Below are positions 7,052-59,845 of a DNA stretch of 64,000 nt, piece by piece. Position 1 is the first letter of the stretch. Every line of letters begins with the position of its first letter. The notes below the pieces were generated by a model. It had not been told where the DNA came from. It saw nothing but the letters and a program-made list of their open reading frames with translations, and did no database searches. The stretch is taken from positions 10,063 through 74,062 of the forward strand of contig CAYQUS010000005.1 of the NCBI GenBank assembly GCA_964421015.1. The letters run 5' to 3'. This DNA comes from an uncultured Planctomycetia bacterium. Its GTDB lineage: Bacteria > Omnitrophota > Gorgyraeia > Tantalellales > Tantalellaceae. The position numbers and the translations under genes were made by a program.

Positions 7052-8489
7052 TGTAAGAGGATTTCTTAAAGTGCGGAGAAAAGAGGCTTCATACCGGCCC
7101 GTATGCGAGAGGGTGGAGGATTTTGAGGAAGTGGCGGTGCCGCTTACTTCGGAAGAGGCTTCACATCAGGCTTCAAGATGCATGGACTGCGGGACGCCGT
7201 TCTGTCATTGGGGGTGTCCGCTCGGGAACCAGATACCCGAGTGGAACGATCTGGCCTTCAAGGGGGAATGGGAAAAGGCCTTCCGCCTGTTATCGTCCAC
7301 TAACAATTTCCCGGAAATAACGGGACGCGTCTGCCCGGCGACATGCGAATACTCATGCGTGCTCGGCATAAACGACGAGCCTGTAACGATACGGCAGAAT
7401 GAACTTTCGATTATAGAGAAGGCCTTCGACGCGGGGATGGTAAAGCCTAGGGTAAGGGAAAGAAGGACCGGGAAAAAAATTTTTGTTGTTGGGTCGGGAC
7501 CTGCCGGCCTGGCCTGCGCCGATCAGCTTAACAAGGCTGGGCATGATGTGACTCTTTACGAGAAGGACGATAAATCCGGGGGGCTTTTACGTTACGGCAT
7601 CCCCCAGTTTAAGCTTGATAAAAGAGTTCTGGACAGGCGATTAGAGCTTATGAGAAAAGAAGGTATTGAGTTCGTTACAGGTATGCTCGTGGGCAGGGAT
7701 ATTCCGTCCGGCGAGCTTTTGTCAAAGGCCGACGCGCTGTGTCTGGCTCTGGGGTCGGGCTGCCCAAGGGACATCCCCATCGAGGGAAGGGATCTTAACG
7801 GGATACACTTCGCGATGGAGTATCTGACACAAGGCAATAGGATAGCCGCGGGGGAAAAGATACCCGCGGATAAGCTCATATCGGCCGAAGGTAAAAAAGT
7901 CGTTGTTATAGGGGGAGGCGACACCGGGTCGGATTGCGTCGGGACGGCCAATAGGCAAAAAGCGGCATGTGTTGTGCAGATAGAGCTTCTTCCCAAACCT
8001 CCCGATCAGCGGACGGAGGAATATCCGTGGCCGAGGTATCCGGTGGTCCTTAAGACCTCTTCCAGCCACGAGGAAGGAGCGTCGAGGGAATGGGCCGTAC
8101 TTACAAAAAGGTTCCTGGGAAGAGCGGGAAAAGTTACCGGTCTTGAGTGCGCGAGGGTGGAGTTCGTGAAGTCGCCTGTTACGGGGCGCTTAGAGATGAA
8201 AGAGATGGAGAATAGTCGGTTCCCCGTAGAGGCCGATCTTGTTATAATAGCCGCGGGTTTCGTTCATCCGGAACAGGGCGGCATAGTTTCCGAGCTCGGT
8301 CTGGAACTCGATGAAAGGAAGAACATAAAGACCGGGCAGGAGATGATGACCAGCGTGAAGAAGGTTTTTTCCGCGGGGGACAGTAGAAGAGGCCAGTCCC
8401 TTGTTGTCTGGGCCATATCTGAGGGGAGAAAATGCGCCCATAACATAGACAAGTATCTTATGGGGCGAAGTTTTCTGCCGTTCATGTGA
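7044..8489 (+). CDS. gltD: Glutamate synthase small (NADPH) subunit
   Basis: Fe-S Cys cluster CMDCGTPFCH...GCP and two dinucleotide-binding motifs (VVGSGPAGLA; VIGGGDTG). Overlaps the gltB stop by 8 nt, consistent with translational coupling. Confidence 0.9.
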   Translation: MGDVRGFLKVRRKEASYRPVCERVEDFEEVAVPLTSEEASHQASRCMDCGTPFCHWGCPLGNQIPEWNDLAFKGEWEKAFRLLSSTNNFPEITGRVCPATCEYSCVLGINDEPVTIRQNELSIIEKAFDAGMVKPRVRERRTGKKIFVVGSGPAGLACADQLNKAGHDVTLYEKDDKSGGLLRYGIPQFKLDKRVLDRRLELMRKEGIEFVTGMLVGRDIPSGELLSKADALCLALGSGCPRDIPIEGRDLNGIHFAMEYLTQGNRIAAGEKIPADKLISAEGKKVVVIGGGDTGSDCVGTANRQKAACVVQIELLPKPPDQRTEEYPWPRYPVVLKTSSSHEEGASREWAVLTKRFLGRAGKVTGLECARVEFVKSPVTGRLEMKEMENSRFPVEADLVIIAAGFVHPEQGGIVSELGLELDERKNIKTGQEMMTSVKKVFSAGDSRRGQSLVVWAISEGRKCAHNIDKYLMGRSFLPFM

Positions 8490-8573
8490 GGATAATATTT
8501 GTGACATGCCGGCGTGGCGAAAAAGGTTTGATAAAGGTCTATAACAGCGAGGCACAGGTTCACGGGAGGGAGC

Positions 8574-11150
8574 ATGATAAGTACCGGATTCAAAAATCTA
8601 GATGATGTCATAACCGGACTTAGGACGGGAGATAACGTTGTATGGCAGGTTGACGACATAAAGGAATACAGGGAATATGTCGATAATTTCGTACGGGAGT
8701 CCCTGTCATCCGGAAAGAAAGTCATATATATGAGGTTCGCCGGGCACGACGACCTTGTCAAACCATCGGAAGGGGTTTCCATATACAAGCTTGACTCGCA
8801 TGAGGGGTTTGAAAGTTTCTCTACAGAGGTTAACGCGATAATAACCAGGGAAGGCGTAGGGGTACATTATGTTTTTGACAGTCTTTCCGATCTTCTCCCG
8901 GCGTGGGCTACCGACCTTATGATAGGCAATTTTTTTATGGTTACCTGCCCGTATCTCTATGAACTTGACACCGTTGCTTATTTCGCCCTTATACGCAACT
9001 ACCATTCTTATAAGACAATAGCCCGCATACGCGAGACCACCCAGCTTCTTATAGACGTTTATGACTGTAACGGTGAGTTCTACGTGCACCCTCTTAAGGT
9101 CTGGAACAGATATTCTCCGACAATGTTCCTTCCGCATCTCAAACAGGCGGACAAGTTCACTCCTATAACTGACAGCGTTGAAGCCACAAGAGCCCTATGC
9201 TATATGAAAAACCCCGTTATAGAGGCCGGGAAACGCAACCTGGATTACTGGGACAGGCTTTTTATGAAGGGGGAGGAGCTGTTGGACTCTAGCGCTCCGG
9301 CAGAAGAGATAAAAAAAATGATCTCCCTTTATTCGAACGTAATGATATCCAAGGATGCCAAGATACTTTCTCTGGTGGAAGACAACTTTTCACTGGAGGA
9401 CCTTCTTGAGATAAAAGCCAGGATGATAGGAACGGGTATAATCGGAGGGAAAGCCGTAGGTATGCTGCTGGCTCGAAAACTGCTTTCTAAAAACCCGGAA
9501 CTCAAATGGGAGAAATGGTCGGAGCCGCACGATTCGTTTTACATAGGGTCTGATGTTTTTTACAGCTATATCGTGCAGAACGGATGGTGGAAACTGAGGC
9601 TTGAGCAGAAAACGGAAAAAGGATATTTCGAGGCAGCGCGCGTGCTCGGGGAAAAGATGCTGCACGGCAAATTCCCCGAGGAGATAAGGGACCAGTTCCA
9701 GAGGATAATGGAATATTTCGGGCAGTCGCCGATAATAGTGAGGTCTTCCAGCCTTCTTGAGGACGGGTTCGGTAACGCTTTTGCGGGCAAGTATGACAGT
9801 TTCTTTCTGTCTAATCAGGGAACCCCCGAAGAGAGGTTCATAAAGTTCGCAGAGGCCGTACGAAAGATATACGCCAGCACGATGAGCGAGGACGCTCTTG
9901 TCTACAGGAAGCAGCGGGGCCTTGATAAGCTCGACGAGCAGATGGCACTTCTTGTGCAGAGAGTCTCGGGGGCGTATCACGAGGACAGATTTTTCCCTGA
10001 TATGGCCGGGGTGGGGATATCATATAACACTTACGTATGGAGCAAAGATATGTCTCCCGAGGCCGGGATGCTGAGAATAGTCATGGGTCTTGGGACAAGG
10101 GCGGTAAATCGGGTCGAGGGTGATTATCCCAGGATAACAGCACTTGATAAACCTTTACTGAGGCCGCATGCCGGCCGCAATGACCTTGTCAAGTATTCGC
10201 AAAGAGAGGTTGACGTCATTGATATAGCCAGGAACTCTTTTGAGACCGTTCCGCTTGACGATGTTTCCTCGGCACCGGATGTTCAGCACTTGATGGACAC
10301 CATAGCCGAACGAGATCACGAGGGAATGAGGATGATGGCGGAAAGGGGCATGAACAGGGAAGCTCCGTGGATAATAACTTTTGATAGTTTTTTTTCGCGC
10401 GGCGATTTCATAGAAAAAATGAAGCTGATGATGAAAACGCTGGAAAAAGGATACAATTATCCCGTGGATATTGAGTTCACGGTTAACCTTACGGAAGGAG
10501 GGTACGCGGTAAATCTTCTGCAGTGCCGGCCTCTTCAGACGAGGGGGTTGGGCAAAAAGGTCGAAATACCTTCCGATATCAAAAAAGATAAGGTTATGTT
10601 CTCTTCCGGAGGGTACTTTTTCGGCGGGAATATTTCTCAGGATATACACTCCATAATATACGTGGATCCGGCCGGGTACATAGCTCTTTCGGAAAGCGGG
10701 AAGTACGATATCGCCCGGGCGGTGGGAAAACTTAACCGGAAAATATCCGGCAGGAATTCTTCTCCCACGCTTCTTTTCGGGCCGGGAAGATGGGGGACAT
10801 CCACCCCGTCGCTCGGGGTTCCCGTGAGCTTTTCCGAGATAAACAATATAGCGGTGCTCGCCGAGATATCTTTTTCCGGGGGCAACCTTATGCCGGAACT
10901 TTCTTTCGGAACTCATTTTTTCCAGGATCTTGTGGAAACGGAAATATTCTACGCGGCGATATTCCCCGAAAGAAAGGACACATACTACGACTCTTCGTGG
11001 ATGTCAGGTCTTAAGAATATGTTCGCGTCGGAACTCGAAGAATACGCCAAGTACAGCAATGTTATAGGGGTCTATGACGTAAAAGGCAAGGGGCTTAAAA
11101 TGCTCTCTGACGTCATGACCCAGAAAATGGTCTGTTATTACACTATTTAA
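8574..11150 (+). CDS. PPDK_N-domain protein (PEP synthase/pyruvate phosphate dikinase-type ATP-binding domain) with a degenerate RecA/KaiC-like N-terminal domain
   Basis: GGKAVGM, IIVRSSSLLEDGFGNAFAGKYDSF and DIEFTVNL...LLQCRPLQ match the PPDK_N/ATP-grasp signatures (GGKxxN; RSSAxxED; DIEFaidGklyiLQaRP). The N-terminus GFKNLDDVITGLRTGDNVVWQVDD resembles a KaiC/RadA fold without a Walker A motif. Confidence 0.6.
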   Translation: MISTGFKNLDDVITGLRTGDNVVWQVDDIKEYREYVDNFVRESLSSGKKVIYMRFAGHDDLVKPSEGVSIYKLDSHEGFESFSTEVNAIITREGVGVHYVFDSLSDLLPAWATDLMIGNFFMVTCPYLYELDTVAYFALIRNYHSYKTIARIRETTQLLIDVYDCNGEFYVHPLKVWNRYSPTMFLPHLKQADKFTPITDSVEATRALCYMKNPVIEAGKRNLDYWDRLFMKGEELLDSSAPAEEIKKMISLYSNVMISKDAKILSLVEDNFSLEDLLEIKARMIGTGIIGGKAVGMLLARKLLSKNPELKWEKWSEPHDSFYIGSDVFYSYIVQNGWWKLRLEQKTEKGYFEAARVLGEKMLHGKFPEEIRDQFQRIMEYFGQSPIIVRSSSLLEDGFGNAFAGKYDSFFLSNQGTPEERFIKFAEAVRKIYASTMSEDALVYRKQRGLDKLDEQMALLVQRVSGAYHEDRFFPDMAGVGISYNTYVWSKDMSPEAGMLRIVMGLGTRAVNRVEGDYPRITALDKPLLRPHAGRNDLVKYSQREVDVIDIARNSFETVPLDDVSSAPDVQHLMDTIAERDHEGMRMMAERGMNREAPWIITFDSFFSRGDFIEKMKLMMKTLEKGYNYPVDIEFTVNLTEGGYAVNLLQCRPLQTRGLGKKVEIPSDIKKDKVMFSSGGYFFGGNISQDIHSIIYVDPAGYIALSESGKYDIARAVGKLNRKISGRNSSPTLLFGPGRWGTSTPSLGVPVSFSEINNIAVLAEISFSGGNLMPELSFGTHFFQDLVETEIFYAAIFPERKDTYYDSSWMSGLKNMFASELEEYAKYSNVIGVYDVKGKGLKMLSDVMTQKMVCYYTI

Positions 11151-20482: not shown

Positions 20483-20640
20483 CATTGTCATTCTGAGGGG
20501 GCGAAGGTAGCGCGAATAAACATTGTCATTCTGAGGGGCCGAAGGCTCCGAAGAATCTAAAAATATTTTAATGTGATCCTTCGTCGGCCTGCGGCCTCCT
20601 CAGGATGACAATTTTGGTTGGCCTCTTCAGGATGACAATG
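20483..20640. repeat. MITE-like repeat element (family 'TTGTCATTCTGAGG')
   Basis: Two forward cores CATTGTCATTCTGAGG (20484, 20521) and two inverted cores CCTCAGGATGACAA (20597, 20626), with a central CGAAGAATC...GTGATCCTTCG. Near-identical to the copy at 59719-59845. Confidence 0.8.
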
Positions 20641-21773: not shown

Positions 21774-21925
21774 GTTATTGCGTTGTTGAGTTATTGCGTT
21801 GTTGCGTGGTTGTCATCCTGAAGCCCAACCAACATTGTTATCCTGAGGCCCAACCAACATTGTCATCCTGAAGGCCAACCAACATTGTCATCCTGAGGCC
21901 CGAAGGGCCGAAGGATCACATAAAA
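21774..21925. repeat. Direct and tandem repeat block (16-bp duplication plus four 25-bp units of the MITE core, reverse-orientation MITE end)
   Basis: GTTATTGCGTTGTTG occurs twice. Units of TTGTYATCCTGARGSCCAACCAACA start at 21810, 21835, 21860 and 21885, followed by CGAAGGGCCGAAGGATCACAT. Confidence 0.8.
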
Positions 21926-22065: not shown

Positions 22066-25000
22066 ATGATATTACATAAAGCTAGGTATAACGTTGTTTT
22101 AAGGGGAATAGCGGCTGTTCTTGCTTTTGCCGTGGCATTTCCTTCTTATTCCGCCGACATCGCTCCGGGGTTACCAGCGGCGTCGGAATACTCTTCAGAT
22201 ACTCTCGGTATACTCCCTGCGCCCATGCGCGGTATAGATAACGAAGCGCGCAATATGGCGTACCGTGAGCTATTCGAAAAGAACCTCGCGCCCGTTTACG
22301 GCGGAAAAGGCGCGTGGGATATCCTCCTTGAACGACTCTCCTCGAAAATAGGTTTTAATACGGCGACTTCTGTAAGGTTTTCCATAGAAGATGTATGGGC
22401 GCGTTTCATAGACGCCAATAGCGCTCTTGCGGAGGAAGGCAACGCTTTTATAGACAGATGTATTGCTTCCCCGGACGGCGTGCACGGTGTGTTGGATAAA
22501 TATGATGTAAAAAAGCTCGAAGAGATGGCTTCGAACTTTGTTTTCCCGCCCGAGCTCGAACTCTACATAAAGAAACACACAAAAGACCTGACCGGATGGG
22601 TCATTGCCAGGTCCAGCGGTATAACGGAAGACTCTTACATAAGGAACCTTGCGGGTATCTTCAAGTCCCCTAAAGAAAAAGACGAGCGGCTTGTGGCGCA
22701 CGGCATAAAAACGATATTTGCTGACGCCGTAAGGAAAATATGGATAGAGCAGAATTACGAGGACGGGTATATAAAGATAGACGGCATACCCGACAGGCTT
22801 ACCCGTTCTGACGGGTTCGGCGTTGTTGTGCAGCCTTTTCTGGATTTTGACGCTTCCGGTACGGGCATGACGGATATGTACGGATGTTCGACCATACAGG
22901 CGGTCGTGGGCGATGCCGATAAGGCCGTGCTTCCTGTGTACGCCACGACATGCCAGTTCCTTTTTAAGAAGGACGCCGCTGCCGGGAGCGATATGGAGTT
23001 TAATCCGTCATTCGAGCGTCTGCCGTACGAATTCCGTCTTAAAGGCGAACTTTATTCCGCGACTGACCCGCAAGGCGCCGAAAAGGCTTTGGCCGGTTAC
23101 CCTAAGATAGACGGCACCTTTTCCCCGATAAGCGAAGACGCGGCGAGAGAACTTTATCGTGTTATGAGCGCGCTTGAAGAGGAGATAGGCTGTCCTCTCG
23201 ACGTGGAATGGGGTTTTCTTGACGGCAAACTTTACATAGTGCAGATGAGGCCCATAATAGGCGATTTTAAAAAGCCTCTTGTTGAGCCATGCGAAAAATT
23301 GAAGAACTCAGAGCCCATAGCGCGTACACCGGTGGCCAGGGGGGAGACCTCTCCGGAAGGGTTTACCTCGAAAGTGGTCCTTATTGCCGATATAGTGGGA
23401 CGTGACGACGTTAAAAAGTTCGAGGATACTCTGGACGGGGGATATATACGCGTGCAGTACGATGTTGCGACTAAGCTCCTCCCTAAGAATGATAACGGTG
23501 TGTTCGAGGAAATAGCTACGAAGGCAAAGGTTCTTGTGGACCCGTATCAGGGGTCCCCCGAAGCGCATAACATAGTACAGCAGTACGGCCGTATAGCTTC
23601 CGGGGAATTTGTCTACGCGAACGGGCCTAAATTGAGGAACGGCCTCAATGACAACCTTACTTTTGTGCCGCATCCCGACATAAGAGGCATATGGGTGTCG
23701 AAAGAGGATGTTACATATTTCTGCGACGGTTTAAGGGCGCAGTTCTTCATAGCTTCAGAAGGTGAAAGAGAGGACGAGCCGAAACTCGACGAAAGACAAA
23801 AAACTATTATGGATTTTAATTCCAGAGTAAGAGGAATGTGGTTTGAGAATTTATACTCTAAATTCTGGCCCGAAGACCATAGTTTGTTTAAAAGCCGTAT
23901 ACTTACAGAGATCGTTTTTAAAGGGGCTACCAGTGGACAAAAATCAATAGCACAACATTTCTGGTACAGCGCATCAGACGATTATATTGAAAAAGCCCGG
24001 TCGGTTATTTTGAAGGGAAGAGCTTCGGAAGAAGACTTAAACACGATAGGCCCTTTTGTGGAGCTTTTAGAAGAAATTTTATCTTATCCGCTTTATCCGA
24101 GAGAATGGGAATCAGAGTGGATGGAGGAATATCAGCGCGTGCTGAAGCTTACGGATATGTCCGGGGCAGTAGAGGAGAGAAAGGCAGAAGACGCCGTTAA
24201 GGTGGTACCCAAAAAATACAGGGCGGTTTTTGCAGATTATAAATATCCGCGGATATTTCTAGCTTCTCGTCTTGAAGAAGATCTCCCGGAAGCTGAAATA
24301 TTACGCGTTCCGACATTAGATCCGGGTCAGATTAAATATGAACTTTCGAAAGTGGATTATGATGTAGCTTTCTTCTACACTCATGAAACGGGCTGGAAGA
24401 AGGGAGAACTGGTGGACATCATAACCAGGATAAAAGAGAAAAACCCTGCTGCCGATATTTTTCTGGACTCGGTCATAGGAGGGCCTGATCTATCGGCTTT
24501 GCAGGAAAAATACGACAGAATATACAGAGATGTAACTCATCAAGATAAGGTTCTCGAAAAAGCCATACAAGAAGGATTTTTAAAGTGGCAGGACGCTGTG
24601 CGGGCCGAGGGGGCGGAAGATAGTGAAAAACAAGAAAATCTCTCGCCCAGTCGGCTAAATTACAGGGCCTTTTTTGTTGATGAGTGGACAAAGTCGCGTG
24701 AAATGATAACGGATGAGGTTCAGGATGATTTTCCGGATTGTGAAGTGATAAGACCCAGCGGAAGCGGCCAGACAGACATAATAAACGCTCTTGAGAAAGT
24801 CGATTACGACATAGACTTTTTTTACACTCACCTTACGGCAGGTTGGCCCCGCGCGGACTTTTTAGAGATATTGGCAAGAATAAGGAAAAAGAACCCGGAA
24901 GCCCTGATATTCATAGACAGTACTATGGAGGACTTTTTGTTTTTCGAGGCCTTTGAGGCCGAATTTGGAAAAGTGCACCGCGCAATGAGCGTTTCCGATG

Positions 25001-28000
25001 AGCTCATTAAAAGAGCTATGGTAGAAGGGATACTTAAAAAACGTTCGGGTGCAAGTTCTTCTAACACGGTATCCGAAGAAATGTCGGAGACAGCATCAAC
25101 TTCAGCCTCTAGTAAAAATTTTTCCGAAAAACTTAAAATATTGGTGTTCGATGACAGCAGGTTATATCTTTTGCCTTTCGTTGAATATCTGGGAAGGGCT
25201 CTTCCACAAGACGAATTTGAGATAGTATCCGCGATGAGTAATGATGAGGTCGTCTCTCTTCTTGAAAGCGGCGGATTCGATATGGTCATAGCCGACCTCC
25301 AATTTCATGGAGCGATAGACGATGGGATAATAGAACTGCTCGGAAATGTTCCTCATGTAGTGGCTTTCTCGGGAGATGAGGAAGATGAGATGCGAAGAGT
25401 AGTGAAGAGAGATTTCCCGCAGGAGCTTGCTGAAAGGACCATCATCGTTGAAAAAGGAAATGTGAAGCTGAGCGCCGAAAAAATAACTGTCCTCGCGAGA
25501 GACATAAGAGAACAGCTATTAAGAGCCGAGGAAGAAGCGGGTATAGATGGCGATGGTACTGATACGACAGGTACCTCCGAATCAAAACTCAGAATTTTCA
25601 TGGTAGAAGACGAAGAAAATACGGCCAAGAGGATAGAAGGCGATATTTTAGACAGTCTGTCAAAAGACGAATATGAGTTCAGCCGTGTTTCTCTCTCCGA
25701 GCTTATGCACGGGAAGCTTCTTGAGAGAGGTGACGTAGTTATTCTTGATATTTCGGGGATATCACAGACGGCGGGTGGTATTATCAGGGATATGCTCGAT
25801 ATGGGAGCGGCGATCATCTGTCACACCGCTTACAGCGATAAGGAAGTTGAAGACAGGATAGGCAAAGAATTATTCTCTCTTGTGGAGTATTCGGATAAGG
25901 TCGGCGGGAGCTCGAATATAGTACCGCTTTTAAGATCGGTAATGGAAGAGCAAATGATACAGTCTGGAATAGAGCCAGAATCCGCAAGTAAAGTGAGAGT
26001 TCTGTGGGTAGACGGAAACTCGGATGATATCGCAAGGGCCCAAAAAACCAATAATGAAATGTTCCATACCGAAGGGGATATAGAATTTGTATATGTTTCT
26101 TCCATGGAAGAAGCCCTGCGGGAGATGACGTCCGGGAAGTTCGACGCGGCGGTATTTGACGCTGAGCTCGAAGAAGAACCGGCATTTACGCGCGACTTTT
26201 ACCGTCAGATCTTTCGCATACCAAGGCTATGCGCCTTAACTTCAGGCACTGTGAAAGAAGCGGCTCGGGATCTTTCAGAGATAAATCAGGACAGTTTTGA
26301 AAGAGTGGAGATATTCCCGAGGATATACTCCAGGGACGATAACCGTGAAATAACGGCCCAGAGATACGTAAAGGTGATAGCCGACAGGTTAAGGCCCTAT
26401 TTTGACATGAGGCTTAGCGAGTTAAGACTCAGAAAAGATCCGTCTTGGGGGCGATCTGAATGGGGGGAAAGCTTGGGAAAACCCAATGTGACATTTGACG
26501 ACGAAGAGCCTGTTCTTGAGAAGGTAAAAGTGCTTTATGTGGACAAGGGTTTAGATGAGAAGAACCCGGGCTATCTTAATTTATCGCGCGAGCTTGATAG
26601 GTTTTTTTCTGGACAGCTTGATATAGAGGTCTTTTACGCCAAGGATCCATCGAGCGCCGATATCATTCTGCAAAAAGAACTGCCTGACGTGGTAATTTGT
26701 GATATGAACCTTAAAGACGCTCTCGAATCAGCCGAGGAAATATTTTATTTAGCCAGACATTACTCGAAAGAGAAAATGAAAAAAGTTTTTCTTATGGGAG
26801 TAAGCGGACTTGTGGATATAGATATTGAGAGGATATCCGACCGCGTAGGCGCGCCCATAGAGCTTCTCGACAAAATGCGCGCGGATCTAAATAAAAATCC
26901 AACACGGACATTGCTGGACATACGAGAGAGGAATATAAAAGAATTCCAGGCAAGAAAAAAAGCCATGGATGACATTGAGATAAAGAAACTTATTAACGAT
27001 CCCCAAAAGATAAAAATTCTTTTCGTCCAGGATTCCAAAGGGGTGACGGATTACGCGAAGGATGTATTCACCAAAGAACTCGGGCTTGTTTTAAAAAACG
27101 AACGTCTACTGTCGGGAGAAGAATATATTATCGTTTTTAGCGATTCTGAATGGGAAGCCCTTGGTTTTTTTGACGAAGGGGCTTTTGACCTCATTATATC
27201 CGATTGGCTCATATCTTCTGACGGTCCTATGGACCTTTTTAGGACGGCTGCCGCACGGGGCATGAAAAAGATAGGTGTATATTCGGCCAACTGGAATTTT
27301 GTGGAACTTGCCCGGACAAGGTTTGGGGATGTTATGGAGGTTGTGGATTGCTGCGGGGGCCTTTCCGATACAGCGGTGCCGCTAATAAGGTCTCTTCGGG
27401 AAGAACAGCTTAGGCGCATGGATGAGGAAAAGGCGGCTTTAAAAGTGGAAGAGCCAGGTTCTGACGAAGAAGATAAGACCAAAGGCCGGCCCGAATATCC
27501 CAGGCCGATGAAGGCGCTTGTTGTTTATGAGGACGTTGCGCGTGAGGATGAACGTTATTATGAGAGGAAAAAGACTTTTCTTTCTGAAATAAGCGAATAT
27601 TTTTTGCTTGAAGAAATAGCCCCGGGACGATATGCGGGAGAGGATATAGAAATAGAATATTTCAAGGCTGAGTCTTATGACGAGATATGGGACAGGATAA
27701 CGGAAGGCGACATCGATATAGTGGTGAACGAGACTATACCCGAACTTGATAGGAATAAAGGGTATTTCAATCACGTTTATGCTTCCGTTCGGGATGCCAA
27801 CAACATGCTGCCCAGGATGTTTGATGAAGTTCTCTCAGGCAACGCGGAAGTCAGCGGTTTTGTCGAGAGCGTGGTCGAGCGGAGGGACAAAGAGCTTTCT
27901 CTTTATAGACAAGATCTTGCCAGATGGGAATCGGCGCATCTTCTGAGAGAGCCCGAAAGGCCGGAAAAATTAACGGTTTTATGCCTGCAGGATGAACCGG

Positions 28001-30441
28001 AGATAATAACCGGAGAATGGTGGCATGATATGATAAGATCCGAGCTCGATCCAAACGAATATATTGTTCTTGGGGCTAAAAATGTAGCCGAGGCCCGGGA
28101 AAGATTTGGACATATGAAAGTTGATATATGTTTTTCCGATATAATGGGGACATTCGCCGCGGAACACGCTAAAGAGCTTTATGTATTATTTCGCGGTGAG
28201 GATTATGGCATAACATTGAGTTCGATTGTGTCTATAAAACACATTCCTCGGGCGATTGGCCCTGGAATCAATATTAAAACTAGCCTTATAGACGCCGGGT
28301 TTGATCCAGAAGGCGTTCATGTAACTGTCGGTATATCTCCTGGAAGTATTAAAAACAGGGTGCTCGCCGCCCGCGAAAAACAGCTTAAGGAATATGAAGA
28401 GCTTAAGAAAAAGTGGGATGAGAAGGTCGCCCGTGAGGCTTCCGCCTCCGCCGGTAAAAGCGGAGAGGACGAGCCGCTAAAAACTGAAATATCCGAAGAA
28501 AAACTTCCGAAACTCCGCATTATTATAGGCGAAGATGATGAGGACCTCAGGTCTGAGCTGTTGGGTGTTTTGATGGTACGATTCGGGCTCTCCCGTATAG
28601 ATGATTTCCACTATGAGGGGGAGGATATCTTTGTCACAACTGTCGCGTCACAAGGGGATTTTTTAGATCGCTTGTCGTCTCAGGATGCGGATTACGCTGT
28701 TATAGACTGGGACCTTGTCGGGGGCAAAGGGCCGTTCGATATGCTTGATGCGCTTTCCGGGAAAAATATAATGGCTGTCGATCTCAGGTCAGGGCTTCCT
28801 CTTTCTTTTGACAGTAAATTTCATGATGCCAGAGAAAAATATCCGGATCTTGCTATAGAAGAATTTCCTTTTGAGCCCGAAGATATTATTACGCGTATTC
28901 GCCAGTTAAGAGAAGATCAGATAGCGGGTTATGCTGAGACTTTCGATAGCGCCGAAGAGGCGGTATCGCCGCTGACACGTCCCGAAAAACCCGAAAAGTT
29001 CAGGGTTTTGATGGTAGACGATAACGGTGGGGTTACGAGTGCCATAGAGGATATGTTTAAAAAACGTCTGTCTGAAGAGTTTGAATTTTATTCGGCATAC
29101 AGGGTTCTTTCGTCGATAGATCTACTTAAGAACATAGATTTTGATCTTGTTATATACGATATGTTGCTTCCCGGGTCGGCTGTTCCCGGAATAGACGAAG
29201 TTTTCAGGGATAAGCTGCTAAAAGTGCCGCACCTTATAGTTGAATCGGGAGGGGGCTTTCCTAAAGAGGCGGAAGGGCCGTGGGCCGAACTCTATCCCAG
29301 GGCAGAGACATTATGGAAGGGGGATATTATCGGCAAGCTTCCCGGGATCGTTATGAGTTACCGTGAAGAACAGCTCAGGCAATACGAAGAGGCCGTTAAA
29401 GAATGGGAAGTATCCAATGTAAATGTGGCTCCGCGCGCGGAAAAACCCGCCGGGGAAAAAATATTCATTGTCGATGATTTTGGTGACGACGCGGCAAACC
29501 TCGCGTCGTTCATAGCAAAAGAAAAGGAAAATTTTAAGGTTGATAGGTACAACATGATGTATACCCTGCGCCGGGCGCTTGAAAAAGGCAAAGTGCCGGA
29601 TATCCTTGTTGTGAATTCGGCCGGCGTGAAAAAAGAAGGCGAATTAGAGAAAGAGTCCATGGACGTTATAATACGCGCGGTCATGGAAAAGAACCCGTCG
29701 GTCAGGGTGATAGTTATAAGCGACGAAGCTGCTGTTTTACCGGAAGACGGCAGGGAGGACCTGAATATAGAGGCTGTTATCGAACGGCCGTTCCATTTCG
29801 CGCTTGTGGCAGATGCTATAAACGGCAGGCTTGATCAAAAGAGAAAGTTTTCCCGCGAATTATTCGGCCTGGAAGAGACTGAAAGAATTTTTGACGATAT
29901 GGAACAGGCCGAGCTTTATGGAGAGACGGCAAATATAAACGTGTGGAAAGGTTATGCCGCTCCGGCCCAGGAGAACATGCTTACGCGTATACGTAAACAC
30001 ACCGAAAAAGGGCCGTATAAAGTGAGTTTTGGTTCCGAAATAAATGACCTTGTGAAACGCGCGGCAGAGGCTTCCGGTAAAGATAATACGGTTACAATAT
30101 TGCCTTACGGAAAACTCAGCGAAGCGCAAAGAGAAGAGCTTAACTCATCAAACGCCCGAGTTATATTTATGGATATACCCGGCGACGTTACCTCCTCAGA
30201 AGATGGTTACACGAATCTTGCCGCCATCATCGGAGCGGGGGCGGCGTATTTAAACATGAATACCACTGCTTTAACAGGTTTTTATTCTATACTTACCGAA
30301 GAGACCCTCCAAACTGATATTACAGTAGAAAGCCTCATGAAAGACCCCGCTAGGTTTATTTTTAACCTCGCCCCCAGGCACAGTTACGGTGAACTCAAAC
30401 TTATCAACGAAAGAATCGAAAAGATCCTAATGATGGCGTAA
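22066..30441 (+). CDS. Giant (2791 aa) protein: N-terminal signal/anchor, PPDK_N-like ATP-binding domain, then a tandem array of about 12 degenerate CheY-like receiver (REC) modules
   Basis: The N-terminus is a hydrophobic signal or anchor sequence. YGGKGAWDIL, ARSSGITEDS and LDVEWGFLDGKLYIVQMRPI match PPDK_N motifs. Repeated module starts (KILVFDD, LRIFMVEDEE, VRVLWVDGNSDD, VKVLYVDKG, IKILFVQDS, FRVLMVDDNGG, KIFIVDDFGDD) are each followed about 50 aa later by a hydrophobic-D strand (DMVIADLQF, DLVIYDMLLPG). There is an internal duplication DYDVAFFYTHETGW / DYDIDFFYTHLTAGW. Confidence 0.6.
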   Translation: MILHKARYNVVLRGIAAVLAFAVAFPSYSADIAPGLPAASEYSSDTLGILPAPMRGIDNEARNMAYRELFEKNLAPVYGGKGAWDILLERLSSKIGFNTATSVRFSIEDVWARFIDANSALAEEGNAFIDRCIASPDGVHGVLDKYDVKKLEEMASNFVFPPELELYIKKHTKDLTGWVIARSSGITEDSYIRNLAGIFKSPKEKDERLVAHGIKTIFADAVRKIWIEQNYEDGYIKIDGIPDRLTRSDGFGVVVQPFLDFDASGTGMTDMYGCSTIQAVVGDADKAVLPVYATTCQFLFKKDAAAGSDMEFNPSFERLPYEFRLKGELYSATDPQGAEKALAGYPKIDGTFSPISEDAARELYRVMSALEEEIGCPLDVEWGFLDGKLYIVQMRPIIGDFKKPLVEPCEKLKNSEPIARTPVARGETSPEGFTSKVVLIADIVGRDDVKKFEDTLDGGYIRVQYDVATKLLPKNDNGVFEEIATKAKVLVDPYQGSPEAHNIVQQYGRIASGEFVYANGPKLRNGLNDNLTFVPHPDIRGIWVSKEDVTYFCDGLRAQFFIASEGEREDEPKLDERQKTIMDFNSRVRGMWFENLYSKFWPEDHSLFKSRILTEIVFKGATSGQKSIAQHFWYSASDDYIEKARSVILKGRASEEDLNTIGPFVELLEEILSYPLYPREWESEWMEEYQRVLKLTDMSGAVEERKAEDAVKVVPKKYRAVFADYKYPRIFLASRLEEDLPEAEILRVPTLDPGQIKYELSKVDYDVAFFYTHETGWKKGELVDIITRIKEKNPAADIFLDSVIGGPDLSALQEKYDRIYRDVTHQDKVLEKAIQEGFLKWQDAVRAEGAEDSEKQENLSPSRLNYRAFFVDEWTKSREMITDEVQDDFPDCEVIRPSGSGQTDIINALEKVDYDIDFFYTHLTAGWPRADFLEILARIRKKNPEALIFIDSTMEDFLFFEAFEAEFGKVHRAMSVSDELIKRAMVEGILKKRSGASSSNTVSEEMSETASTSASSKNFSEKLKILVFDDSRLYLLPFVEYLGRALPQDEFEIVSAMSNDEVVSLLESGGFDMVIADLQFHGAIDDGIIELLGNVPHVVAFSGDEEDEMRRVVKRDFPQELAERTIIVEKGNVKLSAEKITVLARDIREQLLRAEEEAGIDGDGTDTTGTSESKLRIFMVEDEENTAKRIEGDILDSLSKDEYEFSRVSLSELMHGKLLERGDVVILDISGISQTAGGIIRDMLDMGAAIICHTAYSDKEVEDRIGKELFSLVEYSDKVGGSSNIVPLLRSVMEEQMIQSGIEPESASKVRVLWVDGNSDDIARAQKTNNEMFHTEGDIEFVYVSSMEEALREMTSGKFDAAVFDAELEEEPAFTRDFYRQIFRIPRLCALTSGTVKEAARDLSEINQDSFERVEIFPRIYSRDDNREITAQRYVKVIADRLRPYFDMRLSELRLRKDPSWGRSEWGESLGKPNVTFDDEEPVLEKVKVLYVDKGLDEKNPGYLNLSRELDRFFSGQLDIEVFYAKDPSSADIILQKELPDVVICDMNLKDALESAEEIFYLARHYSKEKMKKVFLMGVSGLVDIDIERISDRVGAPIELLDKMRADLNKNPTRTLLDIRERNIKEFQARKKAMDDIEIKKLINDPQKIKILFVQDSKGVTDYAKDVFTKELGLVLKNERLLSGEEYIIVFSDSEWEALGFFDEGAFDLIISDWLISSDGPMDLFRTAAARGMKKIGVYSANWNFVELARTRFGDVMEVVDCCGGLSDTAVPLIRSLREEQLRRMDEEKAALKVEEPGSDEEDKTKGRPEYPRPMKALVVYEDVAREDERYYERKKTFLSEISEYFLLEEIAPGRYAGEDIEIEYFKAESYDEIWDRITEGDIDIVVNETIPELDRNKGYFNHVYASVRDANNMLPRMFDEVLSGNAEVSGFVESVVERRDKELSLYRQDLARWESAHLLREPERPEKLTVLCLQDEPEIITGEWWHDMIRSELDPNEYIVLGAKNVAEARERFGHMKVDICFSDIMGTFAAEHAKELYVLFRGEDYGITLSSIVSIKHIPRAIGPGINIKTSLIDAGFDPEGVHVTVGISPGSIKNRVLAAREKQLKEYEELKKKWDEKVAREASASAGKSGEDEPLKTEISEEKLPKLRIIIGEDDEDLRSELLGVLMVRFGLSRIDDFHYEGEDIFVTTVASQGDFLDRLSSQDADYAVIDWDLVGGKGPFDMLDALSGKNIMAVDLRSGLPLSFDSKFHDAREKYPDLAIEEFPFEPEDIITRIRQLREDQIAGYAETFDSAEEAVSPLTRPEKPEKFRVLMVDDNGGVTSAIEDMFKKRLSEEFEFYSAYRVLSSIDLLKNIDFDLVIYDMLLPGSAVPGIDEVFRDKLLKVPHLIVESGGGFPKEAEGPWAELYPRAETLWKGDIIGKLPGIVMSYREEQLRQYEEAVKEWEVSNVNVAPRAEKPAGEKIFIVDDFGDDAANLASFIAKEKENFKVDRYNMMYTLRRALEKGKVPDILVVNSAGVKKEGELEKESMDVIIRAVMEKNPSVRVIVISDEAAVLPEDGREDLNIEAVIERPFHFALVADAINGRLDQKRKFSRELFGLEETERIFDDMEQAELYGETANINVWKGYAAPAQENMLTRIRKHTEKGPYKVSFGSEINDLVKRAAEASGKDNTVTILPYGKLSEAQREELNSSNARVIFMDIPGDVTSSEDGYTNLAAIIGAGAAYLNMNTTALTGFYSILTEETLQTDITVESLMKDPARFIFNLAPRHSYGELKLINERIEKILMMA

Positions 30442-30590: not shown

Positions 30591-30703
30591 GTTGGTGACA
30601 GGCACCAGCGCCTTTAACAGGCGAATTATGAAGCGCGCAGAATACCACTTCCCAGCGGGTAACGGCTATTATAGATTCTTCGCTTCGCTCAGAATGACAA
30701 TGT
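30591..30703. repeat. Fragments of both dispersed repeat families
   Basis: TTGGTGACAGGCACC (30591-30612) is a palindrome-family half. GATTCTTCGCTTCGCTCAGAATGACAATG (30675-30703) is the MITE core in reverse orientation. Confidence 0.6.
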
Positions 30704-40132: not shown

Positions 40133-40660
40133 GTGCGCTCATTATTGCAAAGGTCTGTGCTGGGTTCGGTGTTACTGGCGGTATCTTTGTTCGCTCTGGC
40201 ATCGTGCGGAAACACAACCTCGGCCAAAGGGTCTCTCGGCCCGGCGGCGGATTTTACTTTGAAGGACGAAACAGGCGAGGACTACAATTTTTCGGAAAAC
40301 ACCGAAGGCAAGGTGGTCATCCTGAACTTCTGGGCCAAAAGATGTCCGGCTTGCAAGGTCGAGATCCCGAATCTGGTCGAGATATACGGCGAATACGCCG
40401 ATTCCGGTCTTGAGGTGATAGGAGTGGATGTGGACGCAAGCGGAGTGGCCGCGATGAAGGCCGCCAGCTCCCAGTACGGGATAGATTATCCGCTACTCAG
40501 CGGAACTTCAAGAGAGATAGGGCGGATCGTATCGAGCTATGGTTCTTTCAGGTTCATACCGACCACCTACATAATAGACAGGGAAGGCAATATTACGGAA
40601 AAACTCAGCGGTCCAAAAGGAAAAGCTTACCTGGAGGGCGCGGTAAAGAAGCTGTTATGA
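40133..40660 (+). CDS. TlpA/ResA-like thioredoxin-fold thiol-disulfide oxidoreductase lipoprotein
   Basis: GTG start 8 nt after an AGGAGG RBS. Lipobox LASCG, then WAKRCPAC (CxxC). The track ORF at 39806 overlaps ccdA and has no in-frame Met. Confidence 0.7.
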   Translation: MRSLLQRSVLGSVLLAVSLFALASCGNTTSAKGSLGPAADFTLKDETGEDYNFSENTEGKVVILNFWAKRCPACKVEIPNLVEIYGEYADSGLEVIGVDVDASGVAAMKAASSQYGIDYPLLSGTSREIGRIVSSYGSFRFIPTTYIIDREGNITEKLSGPKGKAYLEGAVKKLL

Positions 40661-43239: not shown

Positions 43240-43653
43240 ATGAAAACAATAACAAGGGACACCGACTACGCGATAAGGGCTCTAGCCTGCGTGGCTTCTT
43301 CTTCCGGAGGAATGGTAACGGTAAAGGAACTTTCAAAAAAACTGAATATACCCGGACCTTTTCTGAGGAAGATATTTCAGGCGCTGAATAAAGAGGGGAT
43401 CATGAAGTCCTTTAAGGGGAAGTCCGGCGGTTTTTCTCTGGCGGCTGACCCCGACGGCATAACGGTGTTGAGGCTCGTTGAGATCTTCCAGGGACCGTTC
43501 TGTCTCAGCGAGCATCTTTTTAAAGGAAAGATCTGTCCTTTGGTAAAAGTATGTTTTCTTAAGAAAAAACTGGACGATATAGAGAGGACTGTCAGTAAAG
43601 AGCTTAGTTCCATAACTATCGGGGAACTTGTGAGAAAAGGAAGGGTATCGTGA
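43240..43653 (+). CDS. Rrf2-family transcriptional regulator (NsrR/IscR-like)
   Basis: N-terminal wHTH MKTITRDTDYAIRALACVA...GGMVTVKELS. Starts at ATG 43240; the track ORF begins further upstream at 43195. Confidence 0.8.
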   Translation: MKTITRDTDYAIRALACVASSSGGMVTVKELSKKLNIPGPFLRKIFQALNKEGIMKSFKGKSGGFSLAADPDGITVLRLVEIFQGPFCLSEHLFKGKICPLVKVCFLKKKLDDIERTVSKELSSITIGELVRKGRVS

Positions 43654-44510
43654 CTAAACGTTCGATAATCACAATAGACGATAAAAAATGCGACGGATGC
43701 GCGTTATGCGTGCCTAACTGTCCGGAAGGCGCTATACAGATAATAGACGGTAAGGCCAGGCTTGTAAGCGACCTGTTTTGCGACGGTCTGGGGGCGTGCA
43801 TAGGGCACTGCCCTAAGGGAGCGATAAAGATAGAGGAGAGGGAAGCTGAGCCTTACGACGAGAAAAGGGTAATGGAAAATGTGTCTAAGCACGGCTCTAA
43901 TGTGATCAAGGCTCATCTTAAACACCTGAAAGATCACGGTGAAGAAGAGTATCTTAAAGAAGCTGTGGATTTCCTGAAAAAGAACAGGATACCTGTACCG
44001 GACTATGAAGGCTGCGGATGTAAGTCGGAAATGCCGGGTTTTAGTTCCTGTCCGGGGGCCAGGGTCATGGATACAAGGCCGGGTTCCGGTGATGCCTTGG
44101 CATCAGGGGATGAAACAGGCCAGAGAAAGTCGGAGCTTACACAGTGGCCCGTTGAACTTCACCTTGTGCCTCCCGGAGCATCTTTTTTTAAGGGGAGAGA
44201 TGTTCTTATTTCCGCTGACTGCGTGGCTTATGCCCTGGCAGATTTTCATAAAGACTACCTTAAGGGCAGGGCTTTGGCGATAGCGTGTCCCAAACTTGAT
44301 TCGGGACAGGAAGTGTATCTGGAAAAAATAAAGGATCTTATAGATAAGGCCGGGATAAAAACCCTGACGGTCATGACCATGGAGGTCCCATGCTGCATGG
44401 GACTTGTCTCTCTTGTCAGGAAAGCGGCAGAATCGGCGGAGAGAAAGGTCCCGATAGAACACATAACCGTCGGGATAAACGGGTCCGTGCTAAGCAGGAA
44501 AAAAGTTTAG
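43650..44510 (+). CDS. Ferredoxin-like protein with 2x[4Fe-4S] motifs and a Cys-rich C-terminal domain
   Basis: CDGCALCVPNCP and CDGLGACIGHCP motifs. C-terminal CPKLD...VPCCMG. Confidence 0.6.
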   Translation: MTKRSIITIDDKKCDGCALCVPNCPEGAIQIIDGKARLVSDLFCDGLGACIGHCPKGAIKIEEREAEPYDEKRVMENVSKHGSNVIKAHLKHLKDHGEEEYLKEAVDFLKKNRIPVPDYEGCGCKSEMPGFSSCPGARVMDTRPGSGDALASGDETGQRKSELTQWPVELHLVPPGASFFKGRDVLISADCVAYALADFHKDYLKGRALAIACPKLDSGQEVYLEKIKDLIDKAGIKTLTVMTMEVPCCMGLVSLVRKAAESAERKVPIEHITVGINGSVLSRKKV

Positions 44511-44547
44511 TTTATAGGAACAGGCGGTAAAATCCAAGGAGGGAAAC

Positions 44548-46212
44548 ATGTTTTGCAGGCAGTGTGAGCAGACGGCTATGGGCAAGGGGTGCGACAAACA
44601 AGCTGGGGTATGCGGTAAGACCGATGAGACGGCGGTGCTACAGGACCTCTTAATACACAGCCTTAAAGGGATAGCGATCTATGGTAACATGGCAAGACCC
44701 CTGGGCGTTAAGGACCCGGAAATAGACCGTTTCATGATGGAAGGTCTTTTTAGCACGATAACGAATGTCGATTTCGATCCGGAAAGGCTTAAGGGACTTT
44801 TATCTGCGTCTTACAAAATGAAAGCGAGGATAAAGGATTCTTTCGAGAAAGCTTACAAAGAGAAAAATAAAAAAGACTTTTCAGGAACTCTTCACTCTTC
44901 GGCGTCATGGGAACCCGCCTCTTCAACGGAAGGATTGATAGAGCAAGGCAGGAAAAATGGTATTTTGTCCCCCGAGGGGATATCCGAAGACGTGAGGAGC
45001 CTCAGGGAGATAATTCTGTATGGTCTTAAAGGCATAGCGGCTTACGCGGACCATGCCGCCGTCCTCGGGAGAACCGAGGAAGAAGTAAGCGCTTTCTTTT
45101 ATGAGGCGCTTGCGGCGATAACAGACGATAAATTATCAGCTGACGCTCTTACCGGTCTTGTGTTAAAAGCCGGCAGTGTGAACCTTAAATGCATGGAGAT
45201 GCTGGACGCGGCGAATACCGGAAGATTCGGGCATCCGGTTCCCACTAAGGTCTTTCTTGGGGCCAAAAAGGGACCGGCTATACTCATAACCGGTCATGAC
45301 TTGGCCGATATGGAGGATCTTCTAGAGCAGACTAAAGACAAGGGAATAAACGTGTACACGCATGGGGAAATGCTGCCAGCCCACGGTTATCCGGGTCTTA
45401 AGAAGTATCCCAATTTCGCGGGGCATTTCGGAGGAGCCTGGCAGGATCAGCAGAAAGAGTTCCCGTCTTTTCCCGGAGCCATGCTTTTTACCACGAACTG
45501 TATACAGAAACCCCTGGATTCTTACAAAGACAGAGTTTTTACAACAGGGCTTGTGGCCTGGCCCGGAGTGGTCCATATCTCGGGAAAGCCCGGCAAGAAA
45601 GATTTTACGCCTGTTATTAAAAAAGCTCTCGAAGCGGGAGGATATAAAGAAAATGTCCCCGGTAAGGAAATAACCGTGGGATTCGCTCACAACACGGTAT
45701 TGAGCGTAGCCGACAAAGTGGTGGATCTTGTAAAAAGAGGTAAAATAAAAAGGTTTTTTCTCATCGGAGGGTGCGATGGGGCAAAATCCGGAAGGAACTA
45801 TTACACAGAGTTCGCCGAGAAAGTCCCTAAGGACTGTGTGATCATAACTCTGGCCTGCGGGAAGTTCAGGTTCAACAGGCTTGAGTTCGGGGATATAGAA
45901 GGAGTGCCTCGTCTTCTTGACTGCGGACAATGCAACGACGCTTTCTCGGCCATAAAGATAGCCTCGGCGCTTGCGGGAGTGTTCAATTGTTCCGTTAACG
46001 ACTTACCGCTTTCCATGATACTTTCATGGTACGAACAGAAAGCTGTGTGTATTTTGCTTACGCTTTTTTCACTCGGAATAAAAGGCATAAAACTTGGGCC
46101 GAGTTTGCCCGCATTCGTATCGCCTAATGTGCTTAAGATCCTTGTGGAAAAATTCAACATAAGCCCTATATCCACAGTGGACCAGGATCTTAAATCTGCT
46201 CTTGGGAACTAA
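44548..46212 (+). CDS. hcp: Hybrid-cluster protein / hydroxylamine reductase
   Basis: N-terminal MFCRQCEQTAMGKGC...GVCGK cubane cluster motif and Hcp-like length (554 aa). Confidence 0.9.
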   Translation: MFCRQCEQTAMGKGCDKQAGVCGKTDETAVLQDLLIHSLKGIAIYGNMARPLGVKDPEIDRFMMEGLFSTITNVDFDPERLKGLLSASYKMKARIKDSFEKAYKEKNKKDFSGTLHSSASWEPASSTEGLIEQGRKNGILSPEGISEDVRSLREIILYGLKGIAAYADHAAVLGRTEEEVSAFFYEALAAITDDKLSADALTGLVLKAGSVNLKCMEMLDAANTGRFGHPVPTKVFLGAKKGPAILITGHDLADMEDLLEQTKDKGINVYTHGEMLPAHGYPGLKKYPNFAGHFGGAWQDQQKEFPSFPGAMLFTTNCIQKPLDSYKDRVFTTGLVAWPGVVHISGKPGKKDFTPVIKKALEAGGYKENVPGKEITVGFAHNTVLSVADKVVDLVKRGKIKRFFLIGGCDGAKSGRNYYTEFAEKVPKDCVIITLACGKFRFNRLEFGDIEGVPRLLDCGQCNDAFSAIKIASALAGVFNCSVNDLPLSMILSWYEQKAVCILLTLFSLGIKGIKLGPSLPAFVSPNVLKILVEKFNISPISTVDQDLKSALGN

Positions 46213-58226: not shown

Positions 58227-58270
58227 GTCATTCTGAGCGAAGCGAAGAATCAAGATCCTTCGGTCGCTAG
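58227..58270. repeat. MITE-family fragment
   Basis: GTCATTCTGAGCGAAGCGAAGAATCAAGATCCTTCGGTCGCT. Confidence 0.6.
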
Positions 58271-59718: not shown

Positions 59719-59845
59719 GTCATTTTGAGCCACTCCACCTGTCATTCTGAGGAGGCCGACGGCCGACGAAGAATTTATATTTTATGTGATCCTTCGGCCC
59801 TTCGGGCCTCAGGATGACAAGTTAAGAAAGGCCTCAGGATGACAA
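59719..59845. repeat. MITE-like element, full copy
   Basis: GTCATTTTGAG/GTCATTCTGAGG ... CGAAGAAT...GTGATCCTTCGG ... CCTCAGGATGACAA twice. Collinear with the copy at 20521-20640. Confidence 0.8.

Follow-up and report, generated by a model that had tools for sequence, protein, structure and literature searches.

A rare Omnitrophota protein family that joins a PPDK-type ATP-grasp head to an array of CheY-like receiver modules

The window considered here is the whole 64,000-nucleotide stretch of contig CAYQUS010000005.1 that was analysed, and all positions refer to it. On its plus strand an open reading frame (ORF) runs without interruption from an ATG start to a stop codon (22066..30441) and encodes a protein of 2791 amino acids (aa). 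As read from the sequence, the conserved core of this protein consists of an ATP-grasp domain, a putative swivelling phospho-histidine domain with an invariant histidine (His501) and, in cis, CheY-like receiver (REC) modules, of which family members carry between 1 and 13. This is a new architecture built from known domains, and the family that it defines is rare, uncharacterised and phylum-restricted. By analogy we tentatively favour, as possible rather than probable, a mechanism in which the head would autophosphorylate His501 with ATP, followed by intramolecular transfer to receiver aspartates; the domain identities, the way in which catalytic residues are conserved and the fusion pattern are shown, and each step of phosphotransfer, the direction of the flow and the output are what we infer.

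The head (aa55-565) is better conserved than any other part of these proteins. It shares 45-57% identity with 11 homologues of matching domain order (1641-2895 aa, from independent metagenome assemblies), with a mean column identity of 64%. The pyruvate phosphate dikinase (PPDK) N-terminal family of Pfam, PPDK_N (PF01326), matches the whole protein at aa148-397 with 37.2 bits (cut-off 27). The nucleotide-binding motifs of this ATP-grasp domain are present, and GGK (K81), RSSG..EDS (R182), EWG (E381) and Q393/R395 of VQMRPI are invariant in all 12 proteins. A first-pass annotation, made from the letters alone, had proposed such a head on the basis of YGGKGAWDIL, ARSSGITEDS and LYIVQMRPI. These motifs do lie where it placed them (at aa78, aa181 and aa389, respectively), and the assignment is borne out by Pfam as well as by profile and structure comparisons. 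The head profile matches chains of phosphoenolpyruvate (PEP) synthase (PEPS) and rifampin phosphotransferase (RPH), aligning through the invariant GGK/RSSG..EDS/E-W-G...Q-x-R-P motifs. The AlphaFold2 model of the head (predicted local distance difference test, pLDDT, 77; predicted template modelling score 0.77) found RPH (E 4e-12), PEPS and PPDK as its top Foldseek matches.

In the 2791 aa neither Pfam nor NCBIfam detected a PEP/pyruvate TIM-barrel, a rifampin-binding domain, any other substrate-binding domain of the known dikinases or a carbohydrate-binding module. The NCBIfam dikinase models reached 17.8-38.3 bits against cut-offs of 598-1300 (best model: 38.3 against 883). A HisKA (DHp), HATPase_c or HPt domain was likewise not found in the protein by Pfam.

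The head had been called merely "kinase-like" in the first-pass annotation. Its ATP-grasp part stands, but the putative swivelling domain with the invariant His501 (aa406-565) was overlooked, and it is this domain that turns the head into what is predicted to be a specific, dikinase-type autophosphorylating unit. The domain directly follows the ATP-grasp domain, in the same order as in PEPS and PPDK, and the Foldseek alignments of the head model extend over 543-632 columns to PEPS/PPDK versus 336-398 to RPH. Each of the 51 relatives covering this column, the distant ones included, has the histidine of position 501, whereas a second histidine (His536) is not conserved. In the head model a strand (VLVD) is followed by a Gly-Ser loop and then by a helix that begins with His501, which we take to be the arrangement around the catalytic histidine of PPDK. 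Weak Foldseek matches of the swivel region modelled alone (PA-domain, MccF/LD-carboxypeptidase, RraA and chaperonin chains) were not counted as evidence, although such chains have the swivelling beta/beta/alpha fold in common.

From aa715 onwards the protein contains 12 REC-like modules, of which two are of a His-type, eight bear the acceptor aspartate and two carry an asparagine in its place (aa1808-1954 and aa2457-2595). The proposal of about 12 CheY-like modules is thereby confirmed, and the ten beta1-like and the beta3-like strands on which it rested are all present where they had been quoted; the array starts earlier than the aa 740 or so that had been given. A BLAST search with the whole protein against itself found no internal repeats; comparison of fragments with the whole revealed them, and showed that they are of two kinds. 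A hidden Markov model (HMM) of the module, iterated from module 11 over the protein and the 11 homologues, converged on 78 modules. It finds nine modules of the protein at aa1019-2588 (E 1e-16 to 1e-37), a modularity far beyond what chance would give, and it gives 34.7 bits with E. coli CheY and 51.2 bits with B. subtilis Spo0F. A profile of these nine modules matches 165 solved receiver domains in the PDB (best E 5.6e-12), including OmpR/PhoB-type receivers, YycF, Spo0A, Spo0F and CheY. Module 8 was connected to the REC profile by hhalign (probability 92.9%, E 3.7e-7). By these profile comparisons the modules are true homologues of receiver domains.

On the whole protein Response_reg (PF00072) reaches 56.4 bits (cut-off 30.2; best stretch aa2314-2370), so that both Pfam families proposed as a check, PF01326 and PF00072, score above their cut-offs; most modules taken singly, however, miss PF00072, with weak sub-threshold matches for only two of the ten scanned. 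This explains the weak public annotation of the protein.

To count active-site residues all 78 family modules were aligned with CheY. The position of the acceptor Asp57 is an aspartate in 72 of the 78 modules, and in eight of the 12 in this protein. Asp13 is kept in 65 of the 78, an Asp or Glu at position 12 in 50 and Lys109 in 44. In the protein itself the acidic pair, acceptor and lysine (D/E-D-D-K) occur together in modules 3, 4, 6 and 11 only, and the Thr/Ser position is occupied in module 6 only. The retention of the acceptor, of Asp13 and of the lysine suggests that most modules are phosphorylatable and not "pseudo". Thus the earlier description as a long pseudo-receiver array overstates the degeneracy.

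For 65 of the 78 modules the best match sits in the protein of another species and not in the same chain; module 3, for example, is 54% identical to module 2 of the homologue P0001, and the terminal module 12 has its orthologues in the closing modules of other members. Judged by these matches the module identities are old, and their conservation across species argues for selected, non-redundant roles. A recent tandem amplification or an assembly repeat was ruled out on the same grounds, together with the absence of DNA repeats.

Modules 1 and 2 make up a second REC subtype, which hhalign relates to the REC profile with a probability of 98.5% (E 3e-15); module 2 is about 34% identical to module 1. 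In both, a histidine (His773 and His922) stands exactly at the acceptor column, in the motif D-F-V-L-I-H-L-G, and hhalign independently aligns the histidine of the His-type modules with the aspartate column. The substitution, which had escaped the first reading of the sequence, is found in 25 of the 29 His-subtype modules of the wider family (a serine in two, a gap in two).

Two further regions complete the protein. The linker between the head and the array, which we judge from its sequence to be helical in character, shows no relation to REC by hhalign. Behind the array lies a conserved C-terminal domain of about 190 aa, which had been overlooked; it is kept in eight of the 11 homologues, is unrelated to REC by hhalign and has no relatives in PDB or Pfam, with one further database protein matching. 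Inspection by eye had suggested that this domain is shared with the long ORFs at 46475-51844 and 52117-56529, a likeness unsupported by HMM comparison even with the filters off. All family proteins but P0002 and P0006 (these two are perhaps incomplete) end in a short, hydrophobic, alanine-rich tail. In the set of this ORF (window 30421-30438) and P0001-P0011 the tails read MMA, SFA, RMA, MAA, IAA, MAV, EAA, RAA and QAA, and resemble C-terminal tags for degradation or sorting. The coordinates of all features are collected in Table 1.

Table 1. Features of the gene at 22066..30441 and of its product, with window coordinates
Feature	Residues (aa)	Position	Strand	Evidence
Whole gene	2791 aa	22066..30441	+	ORF and homologues of like layout
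Single hydrophobic segment, K/R before	~10-33	22093..22164	+	Kyte-Doolittle scan
ATP-grasp nucleotide-binding domain, PPDK/PEPS/RPH type	~59-405	22240..23280	+	Pfam, profiles, structure model
Putative swivelling beta/beta/alpha domain of phospho-histidine type	~406-565	23281..23760	+	position, His conservation, model
Candidate catalytic His501 (codon)	501	23566-23568	+	motif P-x-x-G-S-R/P-x-A-H-N-I
Variable linker, ends in conserved FPL(Y/W)P..WE motif	566-714	23761..24207	+	family alignment
REC-like module 1, His-type; His773 (24382-24384) at acceptor-Asp column	715-843	24208..24594	+	hhalign
REC-like module 2, His-type; His922 (24829-24831) at acceptor column	865-993	24658..25044	+	hhalign, BLAST
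REC module 3; acceptor Asp1077, D-D-D-K set complete	1018-1159	25117..25542	+	module HMM
REC module 4; acceptor Asp1228, E-D-D-K set	1170-1299	25573..25962	+	module HMM
REC module 5; acceptor Asp1365, acidic pair D-G, Arg at Lys109 position	1303-1440	25972..26385	+	module HMM
REC module 6; acceptor Asp1546, Lys present	1481-1633	26506..26964	+	module HMM
REC module 7; acceptor Asp1713, Q-D pair, without Lys	1644-1791	26995..27438	+	module HMM
Degenerate REC-like module 8; Asn1888 at acceptor column	1808-1954	27487..27927	+	hhalign
REC module 9; acceptor Asp2025, without Lys	1962-2117	27949..28416	+	module HMM
REC module 10; acceptor Asp2214, without Lys	2144-2295	28495..28950	+	module HMM
REC module 11; acceptor Asp2365, D-D-D-K, most canonical	2305-2447	28978..29406	+	Pfam Response_reg stretch, module HMM
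REC-like module 12 (terminal); Asn2517 at acceptor column	2457-2595	29434..29850	+	module HMM
Family-specific C-terminal domain, ends ...KILMMA	2600-2791	29863..30438	+	homologue alignment

An exhaustive HMMER search with the head profile against 1.84 billion cluster representatives returned 52 proteins at E<=1e-30, beyond which the scores fall sharply to those of generic PPDK_N proteins (about 50 bits). Among 185,579 species-representative genomes 11 loci were found, all in metagenome-assembled genomes, nine labelled Candidatus Omnitrophota and two "uncultured Planctomycetia"; a gene that flanks the ORF described here is 62% identical to a gene in an Omnitrophota locus. The family is small, rare and restricted to the Omnitrophota. 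REC-like modules (1-13 copies) are present in most members that reach about 900 aa and score 250 bits or more with the head; in a few members none was detected, and these are mostly short. HATPase_c or GNAT domains occur in addition in a small number of relatives. The first-pass annotation had not recognised the architecture as a described protein family, and this judgement holds: no NCBIfam model comes near its cut-off, the cluster representatives number only 52, and in the literature PPDK_N and receivers merely co-occur in long proteins of the Omnitrophota, the searches made having brought up nothing on the two together beyond the papers on those proteins.

The gene has a radical-SAM gene and a class-V aminotransferase gene as neighbours, whereas at other loci sigma-70, pilin-like, integrase or toxin-antitoxin genes and other long ORFs are found, and in some genomes family members lie among other long ORFs (loci L005 and L006). 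No neighbouring gene is conserved across the window and the compared loci, and neither a histidine kinase nor an HPt gene lies nearby in the window or at the other loci. The head as putative donor and the receivers as putative acceptors are therefore the only constant partners. At locus L013 (7086-9931 and 18524-19052), where the family member P0003 has 2788 aa and 13 modules, the genes upstream are those of a resolvase, of an RNase H/RVT_3 protein and of a phage-type integrase, and a PhdYeFM/ParE toxin-antitoxin pair lies downstream, a setting which hints that a family gene can sit in mobile DNA. Directly upstream of the family member at L007, homologues of an Fe-S protein and a prismane/hybrid-cluster protein were seen (5638-9034). 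The same pair occurs in the window (43650-46212, plus strand), directly upstream of the long ORF with a starch-synthase domain described below, and may mark a recurrent insertion site for genes of long proteins.

The N-terminus raises the question of where the protein works. It has a motif K-x-(R/K)-Y-x-V-(V/L) in common with homologues, and a Kyte-Doolittle scan of the 2791 aa found a single hydrophobic segment and no further one. In several homologues AXA-like sites follow it, and its sequence resembles that of a Sec-type signal peptide or anchor. The putative cleavage site of the protein itself, between SYSA and D, is a poor one by the -3 rule for signal-peptide cleavage, as it has a tyrosine at -3. 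The main unexplained conflict is that the conserved ATP and phosphoryl chemistry argues for the cytoplasm and the N-terminus for export.

In the tentatively favoured mechanism the head would bind ATP and His501 would be autophosphorylated by the dikinase route, as in the M. tuberculosis protein VadK (discussed below): the beta-phosphate would end on the histidine, and AMP and Pi would be released. The mobile His~P domain could then donate the phosphoryl group to Asp1077, 1228, 1365, 1546, 1713, 2025, 2214 and 2365. Receiver domains catalyse their own phosphorylation from donors of the phospho-imidazole type. His773 and His922 might serve as intermediate carriers; a complete relay from His501 over His773/His922 to the eight Asp receivers, which would start like a phosphotransferase system (PTS) or dikinase and end like a two-component system, we consider decidedly unlikely as a specific route. 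In this picture the array would be a multi-site phosphorelay, or an integrator of phosphate, that needs no outside partner; the conserved terminal pseudo-receiver, together with the C-terminal domain, would perhaps read out its occupancy, and the hydrophobic segment may keep the protein at the membrane.

Several observations weigh against this mechanism. The swivel region has no significant profile match to PF00391 or PDB chains in HMM searches; modelled alone, it folded poorly (pLDDT 64) and has no Foldseek match below E 0.01. A residue equivalent to Thr87 (Ser or Thr) is present in only 16 of the 78 modules and the lysine in only about half. The PDB and Pfam searches point to no function for the C-terminal "output" domain. 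The N-terminus of several members looks like a Sec signal peptide, and an exported protein would meet no ATP. In addition, the relatives P0009 and P0048, and weakly P0011, contain HATPase_c, so that the true donors may be kinase cores of the conventional kind. To our knowledge a transfer from the His~P of a swivelling domain to a receiver aspartate is without precedent.

The strongest alternative, which we nevertheless regard as rather unlikely, is that the head phosphorylates an external, non-protein substrate (a glycan, a lipid-linked sugar or a small molecule) comparable to glucan-water dikinase, RPH and HpeHI, and that the receivers are its regulatory input, which would tune the head and would get their phosphate from acetyl phosphate or from histidine kinases encoded separately. 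The characterised enzymes that combine PPDK_N with a phospho-histidine act, with the exception of VadK, on small or polymeric non-protein substrates, and RPH, HpeI, PPDK and PEPS are the top structural matches of the head. In the long proteins of the Omnitrophota, REC is grouped with domains of starch synthase, glycosyltransferase and phosphoglucomutase (10.64898/2026.06.07.730766), the window itself holds a long ORF resembling starch synthase (GT5) and glucan phosphorylase, and the HATPase_c of some relatives would also fit. Against this reading, neither a substrate-binding domain of the known dikinases nor a carbohydrate-binding module was detected; moreover, ten or more input receivers for a single enzyme are unprecedented, and no cognate kinase gene is conserved nearby.

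Alternatively, the signal-like segment could direct the protein across the membrane, where the receiver-like modules would serve as structural or binding repeats of an exported or surface scaffold, with ATP-dependent chemistry either absent or taking place only after delivery into another cell. In a variant, the protein would be delivered as an effector, and its receivers would absorb phosphoryl groups coming from the kinases of a host. The single hydrophobic segment with its preceding K/R, the AXA-like sites of several homologues, the variation in module number from 1 to 13 and the conserved C-terminal domain of unknown function agree with such a role, as does the finding that 94% of the long proteins of the Omnitrophota have a signal peptide or transmembrane helices, a surface or secreted location being discussed for these proteins (10.64898/2026.06.07.730766). 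Still, the strict conservation of the ATP-binding motifs, His501 and the acceptor aspartates is hard to explain without phosphoryl chemistry that requires ATP, and the tyrosine at -3 makes the protein's own cleavage site a poor one, so that we hold this explanation to be improbable.

Very doubtful is the idea that the array acts as a sink or decoy, in competition for the phosphoryl groups that ordinary histidine kinases supply, with the head in an unrelated or vestigial role. The many Asp-bearing receivers with incomplete lysine and threonine positions would suit a sink, and so would the HATPase_c fused in a few relatives; but the fusion of head and REC is the constant feature of the family, and a head that is its best-conserved part and has its catalytic motifs intact is not vestigial. 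The phospho-sink, scaffold or signalling hub first suggested for the protein thus keeps some probability, but is not the best-supported reading.

That assembly or annotation made one chimeric reading frame out of several frameshifted genes has only the unusual length in its favour and can be dismissed, since the frame is uninterrupted over 8.4 kb, DNA repeats and compositional breaks are absent, and 11 homologues from independent assemblies keep the order of head, linker, REC array and C-terminal domain. The read-through, for which the first-pass annotation had reckoned with such a chimera, is therefore real. No DNA tandem repeats were detected within the gene, and its GC content (0.445-0.48, versus about 0.50 in the surroundings) shows no break. 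Scans for promoters and terminators gave nothing above chance. Between the genes of the window a short dispersed repeat with the core GTCATYCTGAR occurs in 13 copies (0.1 expected), at 20487-20636, 21810-21901, 30688-30698, 40316-40326, 58227-58237 and 59741-59843. Directly upstream of the ORF a 25-nt unit of this type is repeated 3.7 times, and one copy lies downstream; the repeat looks like a REP-like element.

In the cases described, as far as we know, receivers are fed by HisKA/HATPase_c kinases, HPt domains or small phosphodonors. If the complete relay over His773/His922 were true, the head would be the first phosphodonor for receivers that is not of the HisKA/HATPase_c kind, the His-type modules the first receiver fold with a histidine acceptor, and the array of 1-13 modules a multi-site phosphate integrator. 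The family lends itself to testing, on a concrete example, whether His-Asp signalling can be driven by a second type of histidine autokinase that is unrelated by evolution, for which the 2026 report on VadK is so far the sole precedent. It offers, too, a natural receiver fold with a histidine at the acceptor position. It also provides one defined and tractable member, of 2.8 kaa, of the otherwise intractable repertoire of Omnitrophota long proteins, and it brings out more sharply the puzzle that in this phylum ATP-dependent domains can follow N-termini resembling signal peptides.

Elsewhere in the window, a second PPDK_N protein of 858 aa is encoded at 8574-11150 (plus strand). It is real, as had been noted (PPDK_N 170 bits), but not a close paralogue: it scores 6 bits with the family head HMM and has no match to the swivel domain, and its candidacy as a close paralogue or partner was rejected in favour of a remote superfamily relationship. 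By eye, its N-terminus resembles KaiC/RecA and its C-terminal part is not a canonical His domain. Two long ORFs at 46475-51844 (1789 aa) and 52117-56529 (1470 aa), both on the plus strand, have a signal-peptide-like N-terminus. The former contains a starch-synthase (GT5) domain and shows weak similarity to glucan phosphorylase; over 230 aa its C-terminus shares 32% identity with the end of a 1405-aa ORF adjoining the family member at L005; the latter has no Pfam or NCBIfam match. All large ORFs annotated or examined in the window (1-64000) lie on the plus strand, and each 2-kb bin shows a positive GC skew, as would fit a single replichore and a strong gene-strand bias.

Among the known systems, PEPS, PPDK and RPH provide the best sequence and structure matches of the head, and the order of ATP-grasp and putative His domain is that of PEPS and PPDK; the protein differs from them in lacking the PEP/pyruvate TIM barrel or rifampin-binding domain and in a swivel that PF00391 does not detect. 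With hybrid histidine kinases and phosphorelays it shares the combination of a phosphodonor (here predicted) and acceptor-Asp receivers in one polypeptide, although HisKA/DHp, HATPase_c and HPt are absent from this family member and two of its modules have a histidine at the aspartate position. Proteins with two to four REC domains are known to us, and twelve is far beyond these. The resemblance to the PTS (Enzyme I to HPr to EIIA/EIIB) is an analogy only: the donor here would be ATP through the ATP-grasp domain instead of PEP, homologues of HPr or EII are absent, and the end acceptors would be receiver aspartates.

The protein also fits among the long proteins of its phylum, with which it shares the N-terminal signal- or transmembrane-like segment and the mosaic of enzymatic and signalling domains; PPDK_N, REC, HATPase_c, GNAT and starch-synthase domains recur there. 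For the giant proteins of the Omnitrophota, PPDK_N was listed among the 20 commonest domains and CheY-like receivers were mentioned (West-Roberts et al. 2023, bioRxiv 10.1101/2023.11.21.568195); a 2026 preprint counted PF00072 in 105 long proteins and noted the conflict between metabolic domains and predicted export (10.64898/2026.06.07.730766). With 2791 aa the protein described here is far shorter than those giants of 10,000-147,000 aa and falls outside the giant class (>=10,000 aa). The papers on long proteins give domain counts, and the family of head, swivel and receiver array and its mechanism are not described in them.

The closest parallel in function is VadK (Rv1127c) of M. tuberculosis, a shortened PPDK that consists of the ATP-grasp and His domains (about 50 kDa; observed mass 50,498), which autophosphorylates in an ATP/Mg-dependent manner, is regarded as a "non-canonical histidine kinase" whose role is regulatory and not metabolic, and acts by interacting with methylcitrate-cycle enzymes (PMC13400623). 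Both VadK and the present family, compared here by architecture, have an ATP-grasp and a phospho-histidine domain (a putative one in the family) and lack a pyruvate/PEP domain. VadK has no receivers, whereas the family has 1-13 of them, together with the N-terminal hydrophobic segment, the C-terminal domain and a divergent His motif, G-S-R-x-A-H-N. The canonical phospho-histidine motif is G-G-x-T-S-H.

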